Part shown: piece by piece, positions 14,496 to 64,000 of the stretch
Layout: every line of letters begins with the position of its first letter
How positions within the stretch are numbered: position 1 is the first letter of the stretch
Assembly: GCF_041248615.1 (NCBI RefSeq)
Contig: NZ_CP158426.1
Reading direction: 5' to 3' (one strand)
Source of the DNA: Escherichia coli
GTDB lineage: Bacteria > Pseudomonadota > Gammaproteobacteria > Enterobacterales > Enterobacteriaceae
Length of the DNA: 64,000 nucleotides
Translations under genes and position numbers: made by a program
Notes under the pieces: generated by a model
Databases searched by the model: none
Seen by the model: the letters and a program-made list of their open reading frames with translations, nothing else
Told to the model about the DNA's origin: nothing

Positions 14496-15019
14496 GCAGC
14501 CCTCCTGACGCCCTGCCCGATCGCCATCAATGCCGCTTTGGATACGGTAGTAAACATCCGTCGAGGACTGATGAACGGTCGCCAAATCAGCAGCATGGAG
14601 CCTTTGCTGTTTCCCTTCTTCTCCAGCCCTGTCGATGGTTCGATAAAATTAATCCGTCCATCAGTGATAATACGAACTTCGTCAACACTCTCCAGAGCCT
14701 TGCTGAACCATCCGACAGACATATCCTCTGGCACAAGCATCACTACCGTCTGTCGCTGTTGTATACACTGCTCAGCGGCTTTTTCCACCCACGGCCTGAT
14801 ATTGCTGTACGGTGGGTTATTCCAGATTGCACCGTGGCTTACCCACTCAGAATTGAGCGCGTCGTCGTCCTCAGTTAGCCAGTGAGCGCACAGAGCATTT
14901 TTGTCGCTCGCTGCCGAATCCAGCCAGAATCCAAACTCAATATCCAGTGCATCAAAAAGCCAAAGCGGCGTTTGCCAGCAGTCCTTGTCGTGTGCTGGCG
15001 TATTTGATTTGATAGTCAT
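14492..15019 (-). CDS. phage DNA N6-adenine methyltransferase (Dam-like)
   Basis: ORF 14492-15079; start [22 protein letters not shown] at 15019 directly after the ninB stop; NPPY catalytic motif. Confidence 0.6.
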
Positions 15020-15456
15020 GCAGCCCGATCTCCCCATCGCGCTTTCCATTCGAGAGCCAGTCGCGCTTCGTCTGACCACTTAACGCCACGCTCTGTACCG
15101 AATGCCTGTATAAGCTCTAATAGCTCCGCAAATTCGCTTACACGCATCCTGCTGGTTGACTGGCCTATTACCACAAAGCCATTCCCGGCAAGGTTAGGAA
15201 CAACATCCTGCTGCTTTAATGCTGCGGTAAACACACACTTCCAGCTTTCTGCATCCAGCCAGCGACCATGCCATTCAACCTGACGAGAGACGTCACCTAA
15301 GCAGGCCCATAGCTTCCTGTTTTGGTCTAAGCTGCGGTTGCGTTCCTGAATGGTTACTACGATTGGTTTGGTTGGGTCTGGAAGGATTTGCTGTACTGCG
15401 TGAATAGCGTTTTGCTGATGTGCCGGAGATCGAATTTCAAAGGTTAGTTTTTTCAT
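15016..15456 (-). CDS. ninB: recombination protein NinB
   Basis: start MKKLTFEIRSPAHQQNAIHAV gives 146 aa, matching lambda NinB as I recall it. Confidence 0.85.
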   Translation of the reverse strand: MKKLTFEIRSPAHQQNAIHAVQQILPDPTKPIVVTIQERNRSLDQNRKLWACLGDVSRQVEWHGRWLDAESWKCVFTAALKQQDVVPNLAGNGFVVIGQSTSRMRVSEFAELLELIQAFGTERGVKWSDEARLALEWKARWGDRAA

Positions 15457-15529
15457 GACTTCCCTCTCCCCCAAATAAAAAGGCCTGCGATTACCTGCAG
15501 GCCTGTTATTAGCTCAGTGATGTAGATGG

Positions 15530-15820
15530 TCATCTTTTAACTCCATATACCGCCAATATCCGTTTCATCGTGGCACTCTGGCGACACTCCTTAAAAATCA
15601 GGTTCGTGCTCATCTTTCCTTCCCGTTCTTCCTTGGTAGCAAACCGGTAATACACCGTTCGCCAGACCTTACCTTCGATAACCAGAAGACCTGCCCGTGC
15701 CATTTTAGCCGCGGCCTGATTTATGCTGGTTACTGTTGCGCCTGTTAGCGCGGCAACGTCCGGCGCACAGAAGCTATTATGCGTCCCCAGGTAATGAATA
15801 ATTGCCTCTTTGCCCGTCAT
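15530..15820 (-). CDS. ren: Ren (Rex-exclusion escape protein)
   Basis: 96-aa ORF MTGKEAIIHYLGTHNSF..., lambda Ren. Confidence 0.85.
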   Translation of the reverse strand: MTGKEAIIHYLGTHNSFCAPDVAALTGATVTSINQAAAKMARAGLLVIEGKVWRTVYYRFATKEEREGKMSTNLIFKECRQSATMKRILAVYGVKR

Positions 15821-16518
15821 ACACTTGCTCCTTTCAGTCCTAACTTAGCTTTAATTTCTGCGATCTTCGCCAGCGCCTGAACACGATTTAGAGGTCTGCC
15901 GCCCATGACAGGAAGTTGTTTTACTGGTTCAGGTATCGTCTCACCACGGTTAATTCGCGCTGTCATACAGGTCAGTTCATCGGCAGCCTTGCGTCGTAAT
16001 TCCGCGTCAGTCAGCGCATTGGCCCGCATGTTCTGGTACAGGTTGGTAACCAGCCAGTAGTGCGCGTTCGATTTCCACGGATAAGACTCTGCATCCGGAT
16101 ACAGGCCTCGCTTCCGGCAATACTCGTAAACCATATCAACCAGCTCGCTGACGTTTGGCAGTCCGGCGATAACGGATGCTTCTTCCCGGCACCATGCAAC
16201 AAACTGCCCGGGTGATGGCAGAAATGGTCGATTCTGCCGACGGGCTACGCGCATTCCTGCGTTAACCTGTTCCATTGTGGTGATCCCGTTTTCCCGGAAA
16301 GCCAGAACCCACTGGCGGCGGATTTCGTTCAGTTCGTTCTGGTCACGGTTAGCCAGACTCGCCGGGAAAGTTGCCAGTAACTGGCTGAACACACCGTTGA
16401 TGATCTGCGCTACCTGCTGTACCTGCGGCTTTTCGTCGTACTGTTCCGGCATGTTGTTGGCGATCCGACGCATCTGCTCACGGTCAAAATTAACCATCTG
16501 TGCGGCGATGTTTTTCAT
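15817..16518 (-). CDS. P: replication protein P (DnaB loader)
   Basis: 233-aa ORF matching lambda gpP. Confidence 0.9.
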   Translation of the reverse strand: MKNIAAQMVNFDREQMRRIANNMPEQYDEKPQVQQVAQIINGVFSQLLATFPASLANRDQNELNEIRRQWVLAFRENGITTMEQVNAGMRVARRQNRPFLPSPGQFVAWCREEASVIAGLPNVSELVDMVYEYCRKRGLYPDAESYPWKSNAHYWLVTNLYQNMRANALTDAELRRKAADELTCMTARINRGETIPEPVKQLPVMGGRPLNRVQALAKIAEIKAKLGLKGASV

Positions 16519-17414
16519 AAATCCACCCCGTAAATCCAGTCAGTGTTTGTCAGGTCGAGTTTTGGTTTGCAGGCTGTCACACCTGCCTGTTGCTTGTTAC
16601 GGTTGATTTCGAGCTGGGTCCACTTGTCGCGGAGTTTGGCCGGGCTCAGCACGTTACCGGACCAGAAGTTGTCCTGGCATGCCCAGCGGAACAGTACACA
16701 CATGTCGCGATGGTTACGTCCGTCACGTTCACGCATCAGGCGGATATCGTTAGCCCACCCTGCAAAATTCGGTTTTCTGGCTGATGGCGCGATGGTCTTC
16801 ACCATGTCAAACATCCATTCTGCGGCGGTCAGGTCTTCTGCTGTCCCCCACTTGCTGCCGCTCTGAATTGCAGCATCCGGTTTCACCACAGAAAGGTCGT
16901 TTTCTGGCTGGTCAGAGGATTCGCCAGAATTCTCTGACGAATAATCTTTTCTTTTTTCTTTTGTAATAGTGTCTTTTGTGTCCCCCTGTTTTGAGGGATA
17001 GCAATCCCCCAATTTGAGGGATGTTTTATCCCTCGTTTTAGGGGATTTTCCCTCGTTTTGAGGGATACACCATTCTGAGATGTTTTTATTTGGTCCAAAC
17101 ATGCCGCCTTGCTGCTTGATAATATTCATTCTGACGAGTTCTAACTTGGCTTCATTGCACCGTTTGACGGGTAACTTTGTAATCTCGCTAAGTTGAGAAT
17201 CGGTGATTCTGTCCATTGGTTTATTCCATCCATAGGTTTTACGCAGAATGGCAAGCAGCACTTTAAACTGTCGCTTGGTCAGATCTGCGCCTGAATAAGC
17301 CTCAAGCAGCATATTTGATAGTCTGGCGTAACCATCATCGAGATCTGCCACATTACGCTCCTGTTTGGCAAAGTTACCTCTGCAGAAGTTGAGTATTTTT
17401 GCTGTATTTGTCAT
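16515..17414 (-). CDS. O: replication initiator O
   Basis: 299-aa ORF matching lambda gpO; contains the ori iterons. Confidence 0.9.
   Translation of the reverse strand: MTNTAKILNFCRGNFAKQERNVADLDDGYARLSNMLLEAYSGADLTKRQFKVLLAILRKTYGWNKPMDRITDSQLSEITKLPVKRCNEAKLELVRMNIIKQQGGMFGPNKNISEWCIPQNEGKSPKTRDKTSLKLGDCYPSKQGDTKDTITKEKRKDYSSENSGESSDQPENDLSVVKPDAAIQSGSKWGTAEDLTAAEWMFDMVKTIAPSARKPNFAGWANDIRLMRERDGRNHRDMCVLFRWACQDNFWSGNVLSPAKLRDKWTQLEINRNKQQAGVTACKPKLDLTNTDWIYGVDL
16981..17067. repeat. ori-lambda iterons (four ~19-bp O-binding repeats) with adjacent AT-rich region (16925-16980)
   Basis: four copies of the CCCTC(N4-6)GAGGGA-type inverted motif (e.g. TCCCCCTGTTTTGAGGGATA) inside the O gene. 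Confidence 0.85.
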
Positions 17415-17446
17415 AATGACTCCTGTGGATTGATCCAGTAATGACC

Positions 17447-17743
17447 TCAGAATTCCATCTGGATTTGTTCAGAACGCTCGGTTGCCGCCGGGCGTTTTTT
17501 ATTGGTGAGTCCATCAAGCGCATACTTAAAAGCCCTGCTAATCGGACTGATGTCTGATGCCATTCCGAAAGCACACAAGACCGAAGCAATAAATCTCCAG
17601 TCCGTTCTGCTTATCTTCGATTCATGACAGCCAATCATCTTTGCCAGACCGCGCTGGGTAATAGCTGACAGATTGATAAGTAAATCTGTTTCTGCGCGAT
17701 CAACGTCACGCTGTGATAGTTTGCTGTAACTTGTTCTTTCCAT
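17447..17743 (-). CDS. cII: CII transcriptional activator (mosaic: non-lambda N-terminal part, lambda-identical C-terminal tail)
   Basis: 98-aa ORF ending LTNKKRPAATERSEQIQMEF as lambda CII; N-terminal 75 residues differ. Confidence 0.8.
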   Translation of the reverse strand: MERTSYSKLSQRDVDRAETDLLINLSAITQRGLAKMIGCHESKISRTDWRFIASVLCAFGMASDISPISRAFKYALDGLTNKKRPAATERSEQIQMEF

Positions 17744-17828
17744 TTCTTAAGATTTCCAATAGTGAATAGTTAGTTGAAAGGTATGCGTGGAAACGCATAT
17801 GGCCTTAGTTGGTCAGATATCTTGGAAC

Positions 17829-17874
17829 TCGCTTTTCAGCGACGTAGGACGAATGTCCGTTGTTACAAAGAGCG
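17829..17874 (-). promoter_or_regulatory. candidate nutR (boxA CGCTCTTTGTAACAA, boxB hairpin TCGCTGAAAAGCGA on the minus strand)
   Basis: located just downstream of cro on the minus strand; boxB has the same GCTGAAAAGC core as the nutL candidate. Confidence 0.5.
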
Positions 17875-17884
17875 GATCCGCTTA

Positions 17885-18100
17885 TTAAGCGGCTTTGTGT
17901 TCCGGCGGGAACACGTCATCAAGACTGACTTTTGCGCCTAACTTGTTTAGGCACGCAACAAGAGCACGGCATGTTTTAAGGTCTGGGAAGCGACGACCAG
18001 ATTCCCAATGTCCGATAGCTCCCTGTGTGCATCCAACTGCCTTAGCAAGTGTTGTTTGAGAGATATTCAGTGACTCTCGATATTTTCGTAGGTTGCTCAT
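17885..18100 (-). CDS. cro: Cro-like repressor (XRE-family HTH)
   Basis: ORF 17885-18271; start MSNLRKYRESLNISQTTLAKAVGCTQGAIGHW at 18100 gives 71 aa; divergent from cI. Confidence 0.75.
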   Translation of the reverse strand: MSNLRKYRESLNISQTTLAKAVGCTQGAIGHWESGRRFPDLKTCRALVACLNKLGAKVSLDDVFPPEHKAA

Positions 18101-18217
18101 ATGCCCTCCATAGTAAACACGAATAAAAAAATACAATATGTACTTTGCGAATACAAGTAAAAATACACATTGTGCATGGATGGTTCCAGTACAGAGCGTA
18201 ATAATAAGGACATGAAA
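18101..18217. promoter_or_regulatory. OR operator region with divergent PR and PRM promoters
   Basis: 117-bp AT-rich intergenic region between divergent cro and cI; contains TACAATATGTACTTTG, which shares AAGTACATAT with an OL-region element. Confidence 0.6.
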
Positions 18218-18871
18218 ATGAAATGGTATGAACTGGCTAGATCCAGAATGAAAGAGCTCGGCATAACTCAAGAGAAGTTAGCCGAAGAGCTAGGTATGAC
18301 GCAGGGTGGGATTGGACACTGGTTGCGCGGATCTCGTCATCCATCTCTTAGTGATATTGGTGTGGTGTTTAAATACCTTGGTATTGATAACATATCATTC
18401 AACCACGACGGGACATTTTCACCTGTTGGCGAATACTCATCGGCCCCAGTTAAAAAACAATATGAGTACCCTGTTTTTTCTCATGTTCAGGCTGGGATGT
18501 TCTCTCCAGAACTCAGAACCTTTACCAAAGGCGATGCGGAGAGATTGGTAAGCACAACCAAAAAAGCCAGTGACTCTGCATTCTGGCTTGAGGTTGAAGG
18601 TAACTCAATGACCGCACCAACAGGTTCCAAACCCAGCTTTCCTGACGGGATGTTAATTCTGGTTGACCCTGAGCAAGCTGTTGAGCCCGGCGATTTCTGC
18701 ATAGCCAGACTTGGTGGTGATGAATTTACCTTCAAGAAACTGATCAGGGATAGCGGTCAGGTGTTTCTACAGCCACTAAACCCACAATACCCAATGATCC
18801 CATGCAATGAGAGTTGTTCCGTTGTGGGGAAAGTTATCGCCAGCCAATGGCCTGAAGAGACGTTTGGGTGA
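18218..18871 (+). CDS. cI: CI repressor (non-lambda N-terminal HTH domain, lambda-type C-terminal S24 autocleavage domain)
   Basis: ORF 18170-18871; preferred start ATG 18218 (AAGGA 7 nt upstream; ATG 18212 also possible); C-terminal ~140 aa match lambda CI as I recall it; [11 protein letters not shown] parallels Cro TQGAIGHW. Confidence 0.85.
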
Positions 18872-18910
18872 TGAAACCACTTTTATCTACAATTTACAGG
18901 GCGGTAAACA

Positions 18911-19468
18911 TTGGCAAAAATAGATGATTATCAGCCAAGCCAAGTAGAAGTTGATAAAGTACTTTATTGTAAAAAAATAGTTAACTTTTCTGGCGTTAAA
19001 TGGAAACAGAAACCAAGTCGCTCTGATATGTGGCTACAAGCCCATATCATCCCCTTGGATGAGGATTGTATACCTATACAAGGGCTAAAGTTTGAACTGA
19101 AATGGAAACCAGATCAGGATTCAGAACCTGATGACCCGATTTCTTACCCTAAAATAAATATTATTGCTTTCTATCATAACAAGAGGGTTTTCGCGGTAGA
19201 TACCTATCACTTTGACAAACACACGAATAGTTACAAGGTCGATCATCCGAAGTACCAAGATATCATTTACGGTGCTCACTACCATGTATACTATGAAGAA
19301 GCTGGATACTATAGTGATAGAATAGCGTTTCCAATCGAAGATGACATAAACCCAGATGACCTGGTAGGGTATTGGAATTACTTCTGTAAACATCTGAACA
19401 TAACTTACTCTGGGAGAATACCTTTACCGCTTGAAGATGAGTCGGGGCAAATGGGGTTTGGAATATGA
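18911..19468 (+). CDS. hypothetical protein A of the cI-proximal insert (rexA position)
   Basis: 185-aa ORF, probable TTG start, AT-rich codon usage, no family recognised, no obvious TM segments. Confidence 0.6.
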   Translation: MAKIDDYQPSQVEVDKVLYCKKIVNFSGVKWKQKPSRSDMWLQAHIIPLDEDCIPIQGLKFELKWKPDQDSEPDDPISYPKINIIAFYHNKRVFAVDTYHFDKHTNSYKVDHPKYQDIIYGAHYHVYYEEAGYYSDRIAFPIEDDINPDDLVGYWNYFCKHLNITYSGRIPLPLEDESGQMGFGI

Positions 19469-20217
19469 TGTGCTCAACAGTGATCTCACAACTAGGTTTC
19501 GAATGCCATCCAATAGGCAAGACCTTGAGAATTATCAGTCCATTCACTTACTGTGATGATGGAGAGCATGTCGGTGCCTTTATCCGTGAAGTCAATGGTA
19601 GGTATTTAGTTAGTGACAGATGCGATGCCTTAATGAATATGGAGGCAAGAGGGATCTCGCTTACCAAAAAACGACTTGATGAGATACGACAATTACTGCT
19701 TAAAGAAGGCGCAGAACTCAATGCTCGAGGAGAAATCATTGCTTGGGCAACAGAAAAGGATGTCGGTGCGATTACATCGAACATAATTAGAGCTGGTATA
19801 CTCGCATCAACTTTGTCGTTAGACTGGTATCAGCCAGTTCAAGCTGAAAAGTTTGAAAGTATGGTTATTGATTATCTATATCACACAGAGCTTAGAGACG
19901 CACTTTCTCTTCGTGAAAACGTATATGGCTTGAGTGGACATCAAATTACCGTCCCTGTAACAATAAAAACCGACATACCTAAATACGTTTTTACATCAAG
20001 CGTGAAACACGGAGGAAGCTGGAATAGTGCTTACTCATTGCTTGGGAAACTAATTGATCTTAAAGCTTCAAGTGAGGAGTATAACAACAGATTTGTTGTT
20101 ATAGACAGCGAAGCAATTGGTGATCAAATGCAACAACTCTCCTTACTCTTCCATGAATCAAGCCAAGTTCTACCATTCTCCAAAAGAGAGACTTGGGTTA
20201 AGAGACTTGCAGCATAA
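19465..20217 (+). CDS. hypothetical protein B of the cI-proximal insert (rexB position)
   Basis: 250-aa ORF with ATGATG start overlapping the stop of ORF A (ATGA overlap); AT-rich; no family recognised. Confidence 0.65.
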   Translation: MMCSTVISQLGFECHPIGKTLRIISPFTYCDDGEHVGAFIREVNGRYLVSDRCDALMNMEARGISLTKKRLDEIRQLLLKEGAELNARGEIIAWATEKDVGAITSNIIRAGILASTLSLDWYQPVQAEKFESMVIDYLYHTELRDALSLRENVYGLSGHQITVPVTIKTDIPKYVFTSSVKHGGSWNSAYSLLGKLIDLKASSEEYNNRFVVIDSEAIGDQMQQLSLLFHESSQVLPFSKRETWVKRLAA

Positions 20218-20222
20218 TACAA

Positions 20223-20248
20223 CCCGGCCTCAGCGCCGGGTTTTCTTT
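20223..20248 (+). terminator. intrinsic terminator ending the cI plus two-gene transcription unit
   Basis: stem CCCGGC/GCCGGG, loop CTCAGC, followed by TTTTCTTT; 6 nt after the ORF B stop. Confidence 0.6.
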
Positions 20249-20419
20249 GCCTCACGTTCGCCCACCTAAAAACACATAACCAATTATATTTATTGAAAAA
20301 TAAATAGATGCAACCCACTAAACCACGCAATTCTGATCTCTCCTTACATCGCCGAGGCAATACATCCACGCTAAAAAACAACACTATTAAATACAAAGCG
20401 TTATAAAAAACCACGCCAA

Positions 20420-20470
20420 CTTACAACAAATTGTATTGATCTTGTAAAGTACATATCGTACTATTTAACC
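20420..20470 (+). promoter_or_regulatory. PL promoter with OL operator palindromes
   Basis: TTGATC, 17-bp spacer, TACTAT; inverted repeats TACAA-N4-TTGTA and AGTAC-N5-GTACT overlap the promoter. Confidence 0.5.
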
Positions 20471-20509
20471 GTCAGCAGGACGCTGGAAGCCAAATGGAAC
20501 AGACTGGCA

Positions 20510-20555
20510 GGCTCTTTAAACAACGTCGACTCTCGACTACGTGGCTGAAAAGCCA
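20510..20555 (+). promoter_or_regulatory. candidate nutL (boxA GGCTCTTTAAACAAC, boxB hairpin TGGCTGAAAAGCCA)
   Basis: boxA close to the GCTCTTTAACAA consensus; 5-bp stem with GAAA loop about 100 nt upstream of N. Confidence 0.55.
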
Positions 20556-20653
20556 GATCACCCAACCACATAAGCTGTGGGATGCAATGCCGAAGCAACC
20601 GTCTCAGGAGGAGCTTCGAGATTGCATCGCCAAAGTTTATTCGGGAGGAATCC

Positions 20654-20926
20654 ATGTCCAGAAAAACAGAATTTAAAGGCACCGCAGCTTCTCGCCGTAG
20701 AGCTCGTCGCGCAAATCTGCAAAGTCAGGAGGCGATCAGCTCCGACAAGCTACACAGGCCAACCCCTTCACGAGTGGTCTTGCAATGCAAGCTCAAACCA
20801 GCAATGAGAGCAGAAGTGATAACTCTGACAACGTTGACCAGAAAATATGAAGGTTCAACTTGTCTTCCGAACGTAGCTCTTTACGCGGCAGGCTACCGGA
20901 AATCAAAACAACTGACGGCGAGATGA
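20654..20926 (+). CDS. N: N-type antiterminator (P22 gp24-like)
   Basis: ORF 20582-20926; start MSRKTEFKGTAASRRRARRANLQSQ at 20654 (GGAGG upstream); arginine-rich motif; C-terminal LYAAGYRKSKQLTAR resembles P22 gp24. Confidence 0.75.
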   Translation: MSRKTEFKGTAASRRRARRANLQSQEAISSDKLHRPTPSRVVLQCKLKPAMRAEVITLTTLTRKYEGSTCLPNVALYAAGYRKSKQLTAR

Positions 20927-20942
20927 TAAATTCATTTGCTAA

Positions 20943-21524
20943 TTACTTGTTTTTGCCATGCTTATCCTGAGCGATAAGTTCATCCATAAGGCTGTCTGCC
21001 TTCCCGGCAAACCTAATGTAGCACTCATGTCTATAGCTTTCAGGGATAACGAAACGGTCGGTATCAGGATATCCAACAGCAGGAGGCCTTCGAACGAGGA
21101 GTCCTTTTTTGAGCAATGAAATTGATTCATGAGCGCCCTTTTCCGTTTGTAGCTGGTTATTAGCGGCTACAGCGAATGCCAAATACGCTCTTTCTCCAAG
21201 AGTTAACGAATCAAACAAATCTTGCACATATTTTTCTTCTTTAGATTTGCGCTTCTGAGCAGCGAATACCTCAATTCTTTCAGTCACAGCGTGATAAGCG
21301 GAATTAACAACGCCGTTAAGCACATAGCTAACGCAAAACAACAGGATGTAATACATCCAGTAATGAGGAAGGATTTCTGGACTATGCAGGTTTATCCATT
21401 CTTTTACGCTTACCGGCATAACAATAATCAATATGATCAGGATGATTAGCATATGAATCAACTGTTTAAGTGTCATTCCTTGCAGGAAAAAATGCATTAG
21501 TTCCTGCCACCATGAGTTGTTCAT
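20943..21524 (-). CDS. sieB: superinfection exclusion protein SieB-like (membrane protein)
   Basis: 193-aa ORF MNNSWWQELMHFFLQGMTLKQLIHMLIILIILIIVMPV with TM segments, antisense immediately downstream of N. Confidence 0.6.
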   Translation of the reverse strand: MNNSWWQELMHFFLQGMTLKQLIHMLIILIILIIVMPVSVKEWINLHSPEILPHYWMYYILLFCVSYVLNGVVNSAYHAVTERIEVFAAQKRKSKEEKYVQDLFDSLTLGERAYLAFAVAANNQLQTEKGAHESISLLKKGLLVRRPPAVGYPDTDRFVIPESYRHECYIRFAGKADSLMDELIAQDKHGKNK

Positions 21525-21667
21525 CGGCGTTTCTCTTTTGCTCTCTGTAGGGGTGAATAGAGTTTATCCGATTTCTCGTTGTAGGGGTACACGAGAACCA
21601 CCGAGCCTGATGTGGTTAAAAGACAGGCACAATCTTTACTACCGCAATCCACTATTTAAGGTGATAT

Positions 21668-21754
21668 ATGGAAGAAGAATTTGAAGAGTTCGAAGAGCAT
21701 CCTCAAGATGTGATGGAACAATACCAGGACTATCCGTATGACTACGACTATTGA
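21668..21754 (+). CDS. 28-aa highly acidic mini-ORF overlapping the ral start
   Basis: MEEEFEEFEEHPQDVMEQYQDYPYDYDY; AAGG Shine-Dalgarno-like element upstream; below ORF-track cutoff. Confidence 0.25.
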   Translation: MEEEFEEFEEHPQDVMEQYQDYPYDYDY

Positions 21755-21938
21755 TACAAATCAATGGTGTGGACAATTCAAACGATGCAATGGATGCAAG
21801 CTGCAATCGGAATGCATGGTTAAGCCTGAAGAAATGTTTCCTGTAATGGAAGATGGGAAATATGTCGATAAATGGGCAATACGAACGACGGCAATGATTG
21901 CCAGAGAACTTGGTAAACAGAACAACAAAGCTGCCTGA
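21738..21938 (+). CDS. ral: restriction alleviation protein Ral
   Basis: 66-aa ORF MTTTIDTNQWCGQFKRCNGCKLQSEC..., lambda Ral. Confidence 0.8.
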   Translation: MTTTIDTNQWCGQFKRCNGCKLQSECMVKPEEMFPVMEDGKYVDKWAIRTTAMIARELGKQNNKAA

Positions 21939-22164
21939 TAGTGGCCTTTATTTTTGGCATAAATAACAGAATAAACACTGCACTGTGTATTCATTCCAAC
22001 GAGTGAATACACGGAGCAATGTCGCTCGTAACTAAACAGGAGCCGACTTGTTCTGATTGTTGGAAATCTTCTTTGCCCTCCAGTGTGAGGGCTTTTTTAT
22101 ATGCATACCAATAACGCTTCACTCGAGGCGTTTTCGTTATGCAATCAAATATAAGGAGTTACCC

Positions 22165-22299
22165 ATGATGCACTTTCAGCTCGCGGGTAGCGGCGTCATG
22201 TCCGCTTTCTACCCGCACGAATCTGAATTATCACGCAGAGTTAAACAATTAATCAGAGCAGCAAAGAAACAACTGGAGGCGTTATGCGCAATGAAATAG
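22165..22299 (+). CDS. CIII-like small protein (candidate FtsH inhibitor)
   Basis: 44-aa ORF MMHFQLAGSGVMSAFYPHESELSRRVKQL with AAGGAG 6 nt upstream; loosely resembles lambda CIII. Confidence 0.4.
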   Translation: MMHFQLAGSGVMSAFYPHESELSRRVKQLIRAAKKQLEALCAMK

Positions 22300-22436
22300 C
22301 CATTAATCACCAGATGCTTCGTGCTGCACAGAACAAAGCAGTAATAGCCAGATTTATTGGTGATTCAAAAATGTGGCTTGAAGCAAATAAAGCGATGAAA
22401 TCAGCTATCAACCTTCCGTGGTATCGCAGGAAATGA
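22284..22436 (+). CDS. Kil-like small protein
   Basis: 50-aa ORF MRNEIAINHQMLRAAQNKAVIARFIGDSKMWLEAN...; GGAGG upstream; FIGD.KM motif resembles lambda Kil from memory. Confidence 0.4.
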   Translation: MRNEIAINHQMLRAAQNKAVIARFIGDSKMWLEANKAMKSAINLPWYRRK

Positions 22437-22517
22437 GTTTTACAGATAACTGGTCAGACGAAGAATTCATTCGTCAGATGAAAGAAATGCTCAATCAGCA
22501 CAAAGAACAGGAGAAAG

Positions 22518-22829
22518 ATGATGATTCTGACTCTGAATGATAAGCGTGAAATATCGCAAATAATCGCAAGTTTTACTGATGAAGATTACGAACGAATCAA
22601 CAGTGAAGTTGATCGCCTCTGCAAACGTTGCGACCCAATAAGCGAAATGCTTCGCTCATATAAACCAGATGAACACACTAAGGACGCTATCGACTGGCTG
22701 GAAGATGATGACTGTAACTATCAGGAAAAAGCCGCTGAATGGTTCTGGGATGCAATAACCGAAAGAGTTAAGGCTGAATATGCCTTCGCAATATTCAAAC
22801 GCAGACACATTTATGGAGAAGCAGCATGA
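22518..22829 (+). CDS. hypothetical acidic protein, overlapping the recT start
   Basis: 103-aa ORF; stop overlaps the recT start; no family assigned. Confidence 0.5.
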   Translation: MMILTLNDKREISQIIASFTDEDYERINSEVDRLCKRCDPISEMLRSYKPDEHTKDAIDWLEDDDCNYQEKAAEWFWDAITERVKAEYAFAIFKRRHIYGEAA

Positions 22830-23737
22830 GCAATATCGTTGAATTCGTTAAACAGCAGGAGCAGTTATTCTGCGGGGCATTGACTGAACAGACGGTGACA
22901 TGGGCTAAGGAAAGCCAGTTTGCAATTCAGTATTTCCAGAAAAATGATTACCTGGCTAAAACAGCACTGGCAAATCCAACCAGCGCACAGAACGCCATCA
23001 TCAATGTTGCGGCGATCGGTATCACCTTAAACCCGGCTAGCAAACTGGCTTATCTGGTTCCGCGCGACGGCATGGTTTGCCTTGATATCAGCTATATGGG
23101 ATTGCTACATATTGCAATGGAGTCTGGTGTTATCTCATGGGGTCAGGCAAAGCTTGTTCATGCTAACGATACTTATGAGTCAAACGGACTTGATAAAGCA
23201 CCAACCCATAAATACAACGCCTTCGGTGATCGTGGCGATATCGTTGGTGTTTACTGCACAGTTAAGACGCCAGCAGGTGATTATCTAACGGAAGAGATGA
23301 GTCTGGCTGAAATTGAGGCTGTAAGGAAAACAAGCAAGGCGGCATTCAGCGATAAAGGACCATGGGTAAATCACTGGAATGAGATGGCGCGAAAGACGGT
23401 CGTAAAGCGTGCAAGCAAGTATTGGCCTAAGGCATCACGTCTTGATAGTGCTATTCACGTACTAAACGAAGAAGAAGGTGTATGGACTGAACCAGTTATG
23501 CCTCACAAATCAGAGGAAGATATCCGCGAAGATGAACGGAAACGCCAGCAGGAAATAACGGATAAAGCACAACTTCTTTGTGATGAAATGGCTCAGGCTG
23601 AAAACATGGATGATTTGAAGAGATATTTTGCAGAAGCATATCGCCTGACATCTGGAATGAAATTGCAGCAGAACATACAAGCCATTTACATAGAATGCAA
23701 AGCGAAACTGGAGGTTGCCAGTGAGCAAACTATATGA
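22826..23737 (+). CDS. recT: RecT-family single-strand annealing recombinase
   Basis: 303-aa ORF with GPWVNHWNEMARKTVVKRASKYWP, paralleling the E. coli RecT motif. Confidence 0.8.
   Translation: MSNIVEFVKQQEQLFCGALTEQTVTWAKESQFAIQYFQKNDYLAKTALANPTSAQNAIINVAAIGITLNPASKLAYLVPRDGMVCLDISYMGLLHIAMESGVISWGQAKLVHANDTYESNGLDKAPTHKYNAFGDRGDIVGVYCTVKTPAGDYLTEEMSLAEIEAVRKTSKAAFSDKGPWVNHWNEMARKTVVKRASKYWPKASRLDSAIHVLNEEEGVWTEPVMPHKSEEDIREDERKRQQEITDKAQLLCDEMAQAENMDDLKRYFAEAYRLTSGMKLQQNIQAIYIECKAKLEVASEQTI

Positions 23738-63159: not shown

Positions 63160-64000
<841 letters not shown>

Follow-up and report, generated by a model that had tools for sequence, protein, structure and literature searches.

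Among described systems, those closest to the locus considered here include the lambdoid phages of the VT2-Sakai type, whose operators and promoters have been annotated since about 1999-2003. In one account, the VT2-Sakai CI is described as having a lambda-like C-terminal region and a divergent N-terminal region, and its six operators are named VOR1-3 and VOL1-3 (PMC10742460, citing Fattah et al., 2000). The record AP005153 already lists three OR operators, three OL operators, PR and PRM. The locus itself occupies positions 17447-20926 of a 64,000-nucleotide stretch of an Escherichia coli genome (assembly GCF_041248615.1, contig NZ_CP158426.1), and the whole of that stretch is called the window below. 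Judged by its sequence, it very probably controls immunity and early regulation in a lambdoid prophage whose immunity type is that of VT2-Sakai (Sp5), and the backbone around it is a lambda/HK97 mosaic. The immunity type, the lambda-like cI C-terminal domain and the six operators have all been annotated and published before, so the switch itself is not new. The proposal made here concerns two genes carried between cI and PL. It is possible, as a tentative reading, that they form an uncharacterised anti-phage system, in which a novel-fold protein, ORF185, is paired with ORF250, a DUF1828 sensor joined to an effector of the restriction-endonuclease fold. As a lesser part of the same proposal, the N protein and its GNRA-tetraloop boxB would constitute a separate antitermination specificity.

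The order of features along the window is P, O and cII (-), nutR, cro (-), OR, cI (+), two open reading frames (ORFs) (+), a terminator, OL/PL, nutL, N (+) and sieB (-), which is the lambda map in reverse direction. In Pfam, cI matches HTH_3 and Peptidase_S24, Cro matches HTH_3, cII matches Phage_CII, N matches N_peptide (PF25694) and the gene downstream of N matches SieB. Positions 17400-21000 are 100% identical to Escherichia phages ev207, ev017, PhiR57_1 and PhiR63_2, and positions 15285-21060 are 100% identical to the chromosome of E. coli Nissle 1917. A core of 576 bp, comprising cro, OR and the cI N-domain, shares 98.3-98.6% identity with VT2-Sakai, Stx2 II, the Morioka Stx1-converting phage, Nil2, 2851, YYZ-2008, 1717 and the PA series (a figure that includes records AP000422 and AP000363), and 775 of 5426 complete E. 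coli genomes contain it. Near-identity to the reference phage extends to the DNA-binding domain of cI, to Cro and to the operators. VT2-Sakai and its relatives (Stx2 II, AP005153, Nil2, 2851, YYZ-2008 and 1717) thus have in common with the window the cro/OR/cI N-domain segment, the six operators (0-1 mismatch), N, nutL, nutR and the lambda-type cI C-terminal domain. In contrast, they differ in the inter-operator spacers, in the backbone, which in the window is lambda-like (O, P and ren 97% identical to lambda), and in the cargo from cI to PL, so that about 40% of the interval is unshared. Six records cover at least 80% of the interval, and none of them is a Stx-converting phage. With lambda itself the window shares the gene order, the divergent promoters, the cI hinge and C-terminal domain but for one residue, and the DNA flanking the rex slot on both sides. 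It differs from lambda in the cI N-domain, in Cro (here HTH_3, not the lambda Cro fold), in the operators (here TAC-N5-GTA), in N and the nut sites, and in the replacement of rexAB.

The original prediction, which was made from the letters of the window, did not mention the two ORFs at 18911-20217, although they make up 40% of the interval 17744-20660. They and the segment that follows them are:

18911..19468, + strand: ORF185, 185 aa with a TTG start, the first cargo gene, in place of rexA; beta-rich, with a conserved Asp/His cluster and no known fold match.
19465..20217, + strand: ORF250, 250 aa; a DUF1828 (YbjN/chaperone-like) N-domain and a restriction-endonuclease-like C-domain, with a 4-bp overlap with ORF185.
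20221..20342, + strand: lambda-homologous segment, equivalent to lambda 35826-35708 at 90% (blastn), with an intrinsic terminator at 20221-20242 (terminator scan).

Homology to lambda breaks off with the stop codon of cI (18872). It returns at 20221, the equivalent of lambda 35826, which is one base past the rexB stop. The stretch with the two ORFs (18873-20220) therefore replaces rexA-rexB exactly. No terminator lies between cI and ORF185, and an intrinsic terminator follows ORF250. In a lysogen the cargo genes would probably be co-transcribed with cI up to this conserved terminator, as rexAB is in lambda.

Profile searches connect both proteins with one candidate defence system. ORF250 matches PDC-M24B of PADLOC over its full length (E=4.7e-10), and ORF185 matches PDC-M24A weakly (E=4.8e-4) and over residues 104-163 only. 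A weak match to DUF6978 also falls in the C-terminal third of ORF185. Because a profile search with the ORF185 alignment reached no DUF6978-annotated protein, the link to that family consists of one weak Pfam hit. The C-domain of ORF250, when searched alone, had no match in Pfam, and no canonical PD-(D/E)xK motif could be assigned to it. Sequence searches of the PDB with ORF185 and ORF250 returned designed repeat proteins or noise only, and neither protein fell into a Rex or BstA family in PADLOC, Pfam or PHROGs. In literature searches, no paper was found that names PDC-M24, and the few papers with DUF1828 or DUF6978 seem, judged by title and abstract, to touch on them in passing only; nothing on their function was found.

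The distribution of the pair is broad. Homologues of ORF185 and ORF250 occur across the Enterobacterales and Aeromonas and are found together on at least 10 contigs, and the cassette is present at 99% identity or more in 240 of the 5426 complete E. coli genomes. Within prophages of Aeromonas caviae, Photorhabdus and Salmonella, the pair follows immediately on the repressor in the same orientation, and the repressors are of three unrelated kinds. One related locus (L082) carries the same cassette with a different immunity. The slot itself, from the 3' end of cI to the lambda-homologous terminator segment, varies in content: 70 loci with shared anchors (L007-L086) carry at least 13 different cargos there. 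In one of these (L031) the cargo encodes proteins of 279 aa and 144 aa, which we take to be genuine RexA and RexB, and their sequences are unrelated to ORF185 and ORF250. The alternatives also include a three-ORF set that by eye resembles a toxin-antitoxin module (L070) and several single large ORFs.

Compared with described systems, the pair resembles RexAB and BstA of Salmonella phage BTP1 (PMC8585504) in its position directly after the repressor and its co-orientation with it, and it resembles lambda RexAB further in being a two-gene operon that ends at the same terminator. In contrast to both, ORF185 and ORF250 belong to no reported Rex or BstA family, and the match to PDC-M24A is partial and weak. 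Our best guess from the sequence, for which the balance is about even or tips slightly in favor, is that the pair is a candidate exclusion or abortive-infection function expressed in the lysogen.

The antitermination components of the locus are:

20654..20926, + strand: N, 90 aa, with the arginine-rich motif (ARM) KGTAASRRRARRANLQSQ and an HK97/P22-type C-terminus CLPNVALYAAGYRKSKQLTAR; Pfam PF25694 (E=1.5e-32); GGAGG Shine-Dalgarno 5 nt upstream.
20510..20555, + strand: nutL, consisting of boxA GGCTCTTTAAACAAC (20510-20524), spacer hairpin GTCGACTCTCGAC (20525-20537), TACG, and boxB TGGCT-GAAA-AGCCA (20542-20555).
17829..17874, - strand: nutR, consisting of boxA CGCTCTTTGTAACAAC (17874-17859), spacer hairpin GGACATTCGTCC (17858-17847), TACG, and boxB TCGCT-GAAA-AGCGA (17842-17829).

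Near-identical boxB hairpins had been predicted upstream of N and downstream of cro, and the two candidates, TGGCTGAAAAGCCA (20542-20555, +) and TCGCTGAAAAGCGA (17829-17842, -), do each fold into a hairpin whose stem has 5 bp and whose loop is GAAA (z = -4.1 and -2.6). Between nutL and nutR the stems differ by a compensatory change of a G-C to a C-G pair, and the boxA of the nut sites has the form G/CGCTCTTT..AACAAC. When the composite GCTCTTT-N-TACGT-boxB was searched, nutL and nutR were the only matches in the window, against a chance expectation of 0; the two are collinear and span 44 nt each. Their placement is that of nut sites, nutL lying between PL and N and nutR between cro and cII. 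No change in boxA or boxB is seen among 32 (nutL) and 29 (nutR) distinct related sequences, in line with the expectation that the hairpins be conserved in related phages, and the variation in nutL is confined to the loop of its spacer hairpin. A search of 15000-23000 against Rfam (E up to 1) gave chance-level matches only and no nut or oop family, and a literature search on the nut sites of Stx phages returned nothing relevant. One more boxB-like hairpin, TCGCTGGAAAGCGA (63219-63232), has no boxA and falls within a coding gene of the chromosome, and it was rejected as a chance match. That gene, presumably nagZ-like from its translation, shows that the window extends into the host chromosome.

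N scores 112.5 bits on PF25694 (cut-off 27.9), whereas lambda N scores 16.4 bits, below the cut-off, and matches PF11438 instead. Compared with HK97 N, the N of the window has two internal deletions and shares 59% identity over the aligned parts; its identity to P22 gp24 is 45%. The proposal that N is P22 gp24-like rather than lambda-like is thus correct as to family (112 versus 16 bits on PF25694), but the nearest characterised relative is the N of HK97/H-19B. The loop also departs from expectation: the target of P22/HK97-type ARMs is a GACAA pentaloop, and both loops here are GAAA tetraloops, one nucleotide shorter. N is a member of the P22-HK97 family, and its RNA target is, judging from the two nut sites, a variant one. 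Specifically, the window shares with HK97/H-19B both ends of N (MxRxTxFKG at the N-terminus and the final 21 residues), and with HK97 nutR the boxA, the spacer hairpin GGACATTCGTCC, TACG and the boxB stem. It differs from HK97 in the length of N (90 aa here versus 127 aa, owing to the internal deletions), in the ARM (AASRRRARRANL here versus SRSRRRERLKAK) and in the loop (GAAA here versus GACAA). With P22 gp24 it shares PF25694, the C-terminus LPxVALYAAGxRKSKQxTAR, a GCGCU-type boxB stem and boxA CGCTCTTTA. In contrast, the two N proteins are only 45% identical overall, and P22 has the GACAA pentaloop and no TACG-linked spacer hairpin of the form found in the window.

To relate ARM to loop, 240 loci were surveyed, in about 220 of which the nutL hairpin could be scored. 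The ARM KGTAASRRRARRANLQSQ occurred with a GAAA loop in 79 of 79 loci, and the HK97/H-19B and P22 ARMs with GACAA in approximately 140 of 140. As each ARM class is essentially one lineage, this pattern represents one co-change rather than 79 independent events and does not amount to statistical proof. Other ARM classes that share the N C-terminus have quite different nut hairpins. One locus (L228) was considered as a second, independent lineage combining RRRARR with a tetraloop, but its nut hairpins differ, and the association between ARM and tetraloop stays that of a single lineage. Loci L227-L246 show at least five N-terminal ARMs, each with its own nutL hairpin, on the same C-terminus (..LPxVALYAAGxRKSKQxTAR). 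N is itself mosaic, with an RNA-binding module and a polymerase-side module.

In the proposed mechanism, N made from PL after induction would load onto RNA polymerase at nutL and nutR, its ARM binding the boxB hairpin with the GAAA tetraloop. Antitermination would then allow transcription to reach cII, O and P in one direction and the recombination genes in the other. In each nut site, boxA opens with four bases (GGCU in nutL, CGCU in nutR) that recur as the 5' arm of the boxB of that site. The 3' arm of boxB thus has two possible partners, and in the minimum-energy folds its partner is boxA. This pairing is reminiscent of the 'alternative NUT RNA structures' reportedly found for H-19B. The H-19B nutR, whose design the nut sites of the window match, is described as containing two hairpins, with N and NusA together protecting both the spacer and boxB (PMC3526286).

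The switch between these antitermination sites consists of the following elements:

18212..18871 (annotated from 18176), + strand: cI repressor, an HTH_3 N-domain followed by the lambda S24 hinge and C-terminal domain (Pfam, lambda alignment, DNA joint, start-codon analysis).
17885..18100, - strand: cro, 71 aa, all HTH_3 in the style of 434/P22 rather than of the lambda Cro fold, with recognition helix QGAIGHW; Pfam HTH_3 (E=4e-12); annotated as Cro in PV340572 and AP005153.
18129..18203, no strand: OR as a whole, three 17-bp operators of the form N3-TAC-N5-GTA-N3.
18129-18145, no strand: OR1, AAATACAATATGTACTT, mapped from AP005153.
18161-18177, no strand: OR2, AAATACACATTGTGCAT, mapped from AP005153.
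18187-18203, no strand: OR3, CAGTACAGAGCGTAATA, mapped from AP005153.
18156-18128, - strand: PR, TTGTAT (18156-18151), N17, TATTTT (18133-18128); read from the sequence, and the 'putative major rightward promoter' of AP005153.
18177-18205, + strand: candidate PRM, TGGATG (18177-18182), N17, AATAAT (18200-18205); assigned from the AP005153 annotation and geometry.
20389-20405, + strand: OL3, mapped from AP005153.
20422-20438, + strand: OL2, mapped from AP005153.
20447-20463, + strand: OL1, AAGTACATATCGTACTA, mapped from AP005153.
20436-20464, + strand: PL, TTGATC (20436-20441), N17, TACTAT (20459-20464); read from the sequence.

The repressor had been described as a lambda-type C-terminal domain joined to a different N-terminal DNA-binding domain, and the alignments agree. 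From YEYPVFSH to its end, cI is that of lambda except for a single W to L change, while the N-terminal approximately 85 aa align weakly with lambda cI; in the DNA, lambda homology begins at 18461 (93% identity, blastn). The C-terminal part matches Peptidase_S24 (E=1e-28) and retains the AG site and the GNSM and FKKL motifs of a self-cleaving S24 domain. In lambda cI these are the cleavage site and catalytic residues. Since this half of the protein is lambda's own, dimerisation, cooperativity and RecA-stimulated Ala-Gly self-cleavage would be expected as in lambda. The suggested parallel between the recognition helices of cI and Cro also holds. TQGGIGHW in cI (recognition helix QGGIGHW) and TQGAIGHW in Cro form the turn and third helix of an HTH_3 domain in both, and the cI N-domain and Cro share 35% identity over 62 aa (E=9e-13). 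Because the helices are nearly identical, the two proteins would be expected to read the same operator sites. One related sequence carries a CAG to TAG change at the position equivalent to 18302, the Gln that opens the cI recognition helix, and is thus a repressor nonsense allele.

The arrangement is that of a lambdoid cI/Cro switch, with a divergent repressor and cro, a short tripartite operator region between and overlapping them that contains three 17-bp dyads, and a second operator set at PL (20389-20463) with the same N3-TAC-N5-GTA-N3 pattern, which all six operators share. The AP005153 operators match the window at the six sites with 0-1 mismatch. The element predicted to be common to the OR and PL/OL regions, AAGTACATAT, has exactly two copies in the window of 64 kb, one at 18136-18145 (-) and one at 20447-20456 (+), where it is the half-site common to OR1 and OL1; 0.08 occurrences were expected by chance, and none of 100 shuffles contained two or more copies. 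Among 21-23 distinct related sequences, 22 of 103 operator columns are variable compared with 29 of 49 spacer columns (Fisher p=7e-6), and only 1 of 36 columns varies in the TAC/GTA core triplets. This variation supports the operators because it sits in the spacers instead.

According to this arrangement, cI dimers would bind the three OR and three OL 17-bp operators through the HTH_3 N-domain. The O1 site overlaps the -10 hexamer by 5 bp at both PR and PL, OL1 being placed in PL as OR1 is in PR, and OR1 and OL1, lying between the -35 and -10 hexamers, would shut off both promoters. OR2 lies against the -35 hexamer of PRM, as it does in lambda, and its likely effect is activation of a leaderless cI transcript. 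The predicted PRM start is the A of the ATG at 18212, which would put the center of OR2 at -43 and that of OR3 at -17, approximately the lambda geometry. In the window as in lambda, OR1 is centered at -17 of PR and OR2 at -43 of the predicted leaderless PRM start, and the lambda positive-control residues E34 and D38 of helix 2 align with acidic residues in the window cI, both Glu.

This geometry bears on the start of cI, which the databases place at the ATG at 18176. Among relatives, 8 of 34 columns are variable in 18178-18211 compared with 20 of 249 in 18212-18460 (p=0.01). In the frame opened at 18176, 9 of 10 changes in the upstream stretch are nonsynonymous, whereas those downstream are mostly synonymous, and OR3 would fall within the coding sequence. 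The ATG at 18218 has AAGG 8 nt upstream, and the ATG at 18212 fits a leaderless PRM transcript. Since the upstream stretch varies like non-coding DNA, its changes are nonsynonymous and OR3 would be coding, 18212 or 18218 is a likelier start than 18176. Thus, cI probably begins at 18212 (leaderless from PRM) or 18218, and relative to 18212 the annotated start would be 12 codons too long; the evidence is suggestive, not proof.

These components travel as modules. Among 80 IMG/VR loci encoding the same N as the window, 53 have the window cI N-domain, and 51 of these 53 also have the window cro. The two exceptions (L069 and L076) are deletion derivatives with a truncated cro, so membership of the cI N-domain and Cro in one immunity group, which the original prediction needed, is borne out. 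In approximately 22 further loci a different repressor/cro/operator block sits as a whole between the same nutR and nutL-N. This pattern of co-occurrence indicates that the cI N-domain, Cro and operators are one exchangeable unit and that N, nutL and nutR are another. A mosaic immunity region with internally consistent repressor, Cro, operators, N and nut signals is therefore supported, though it was already known. In L069 and L076 the equivalent of 13460 is joined to 18043, with loss of cII, O, P and the 5' part of cro and retention of OR, cI and N; both are probably cryptic, locked-in prophages.

Alternatives to these assignments differ greatly in their prospects. That the region represents an undescribed immunity specificity, with a new set of cI, Cro and operators, has next to no chance of being correct. 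The cI N-domain is indeed unlike its lambda and P22 counterparts, and cI, Cro, cII and N have no specific NCBIfam name. However, the segment of cro, OR and the cI N-domain is 98-99% identical to those of VT2-Sakai, Stx2 II and other Stx phages with annotated and published operators, and this identity together with the AP005153 annotation ruled the idea out. A much more serious alternative is that the cargo ORFs are not a defence or exclusion function expressed in the lysogen but have another accessory role, for example in lysogenic conversion or, as has been suggested for RexAB, in regulating the switch. We lean against this alternative but consider it a real contender. The PADLOC match of ORF185 is weak and restricted to its C-terminal third, ORF250 has no assigned PD-(D/E)xK catalytic motif, and experimental data on the cargo families were not found in the literature. 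A bioRxiv preprint proposes that lambda RexAB itself assists the transition from lysogeny to the lytic cycle. On the other side, ORF185 and ORF250 match the A and B components of the same PADLOC candidate, PDC-M24, and ORF250 has a restriction-endonuclease-like domain. The pair also stands behind three unrelated repressor types in Aeromonas, Photorhabdus and Salmonella, and the rex slot is a hot spot for at least 13 alternative cargos, rexAB among them.

With regard to antitermination, the GAAA boxB might be interchangeable with the GACAA boxB of P22 and HK97, so that N would be a plain P22-type N in which the changes of loop and ARM are neutral drift. This seems somewhat doubtful, although several observations are compatible with it. 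N belongs to the same Pfam family as its P22 and HK97 counterparts and has an identical C-terminus, and HK97 nutR has the same boxB stem (CGCU/AGCG), TACG lead-in and spacer hairpin. Nuclear magnetic resonance structures of the lambda and P22 N-boxB complexes show that both pentaloops fold in a GNRA-like manner with one base flipped out, so a true GAAA loop could present the same surface. The association between ARM type and loop type is nonetheless perfect (GAAA in 79 of 79 versus 0 of approximately 140), although it counts as one evolutionary event rather than 79 because each ARM class is essentially one lineage; both nut sites of the phage have the tetraloop, and the ARM is unlike those of HK97 and P22 at most positions; the Glu that follows RRR/RRH in lambda, P22 and HK97 is Ala here. 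These observations speak against interchangeability.

Several points also weigh against the assignment of the region as a functional VT2-Sakai-type control region. The evidence is wholly computational: what was observed are sequence identities, domain families, motif statistics and conservation patterns, while binding, promoter function and antitermination are all inferred from these. Because the related sequences are so close (82-100% identity), the invariance of boxA and boxB alone is modest evidence. The center spacing between OR1 and OR2 is 32 bp, compared with 24 bp in lambda, and that between OR2 and OR3 is 26 bp, while the OL spacings are 25 and 33 bp, in the opposite order; with spacings unlike those of lambda, pairwise cooperativity in the lambda style is not guaranteed. 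A generic sigma-70 scan missed PR, PL and PRM and found fewer promoter-like sites than in shuffled sequence. Since these promoters are too weak in consensus for such a scan, their assignment relies on analogy and on the AP005153 annotation. The only gel shifts found in the literature for VT2-Sakai operators used lambda CI rather than the cognate repressor. Lastly, the Nissle 1917 prophage with identical sequence was reported to be non-inducible (PMC5987069), and the copy in the window may therefore lie in a defective prophage. Identical regions are also present in records deposited as complete phage genomes (ev207 and PhiR57_1).

Beyond nutR, the locus passes into lambda-type DNA through cII:

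17447..17743, - strand: cII, residues 1-78 HK97-type and the last 20 residues, LTNKKRPAATERSEQIQMEF, lambda-identical; Pfam Phage_CII (E=7e-34) and alignments with HK97 and lambda.
17471-17498: oop terminator, in lambda-homologous DNA (terminator scan).
17721..17752, + strand: candidate PRE, TTGC-N6-TTGT (17721-17734) followed by TAAGAT, inside the first cII codons and directed towards cI.

The joint in the cII DNA lies at 17509, equivalent to lambda 38591 (blastn), and O, P and ren beyond it are 97% identical to lambda. As proposed, cII is a hybrid that becomes lambda-identical only in its last approximately 20 residues, before the lambda-type O, with the refinement that the rest is HK97-type. 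The putative PRE was assigned from its likeness to lambda PRE, TTGC-N6-TTGC...TAAGTAT, and cII, with its HK97-type DNA-binding part and lambda tail, would activate it. At 17783-17798, between nutR and cII, there is a hairpin, AUGCGU-UUCC-ACGCAU, that is identical in HK97 and stands at the place of lambda tR1.

The position of cII has a bearing on an experiment in Nissle 1917. Bury et al. (2018) cloned a 'phage repressor (pr, EcN_1294)' from this strain and found that plating of lambda and Stx phages on K-12 was approximately 200-fold lower (PMC5987069). The pr cloning primers given there map to 17421-17440 and 17771-17789 of the window, and the quantitative PCR primers to 17488-17546. As the cloning primers flank 17421-17789, the clone carries cII with oop and PRE, not cI.

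The identification of pr as cII rather than cI changes the reading of the Nissle protection result. The probable correction of the cI start matters for anyone expressing a repressor of the VT2-Sakai type, an immunity type that Nissle 1917, ATCC 25922 and the type strain all carry and that occurs in approximately one of every seven complete E. coli genomes. In this phage group the rex slot forms a clean hot spot flanked by anchors, and the cargo of the window is a conserved candidate two-gene module. Overall, only two parts of the region might repay experiments, namely the rex-slot cassette and, less so, the tetraloop boxB.

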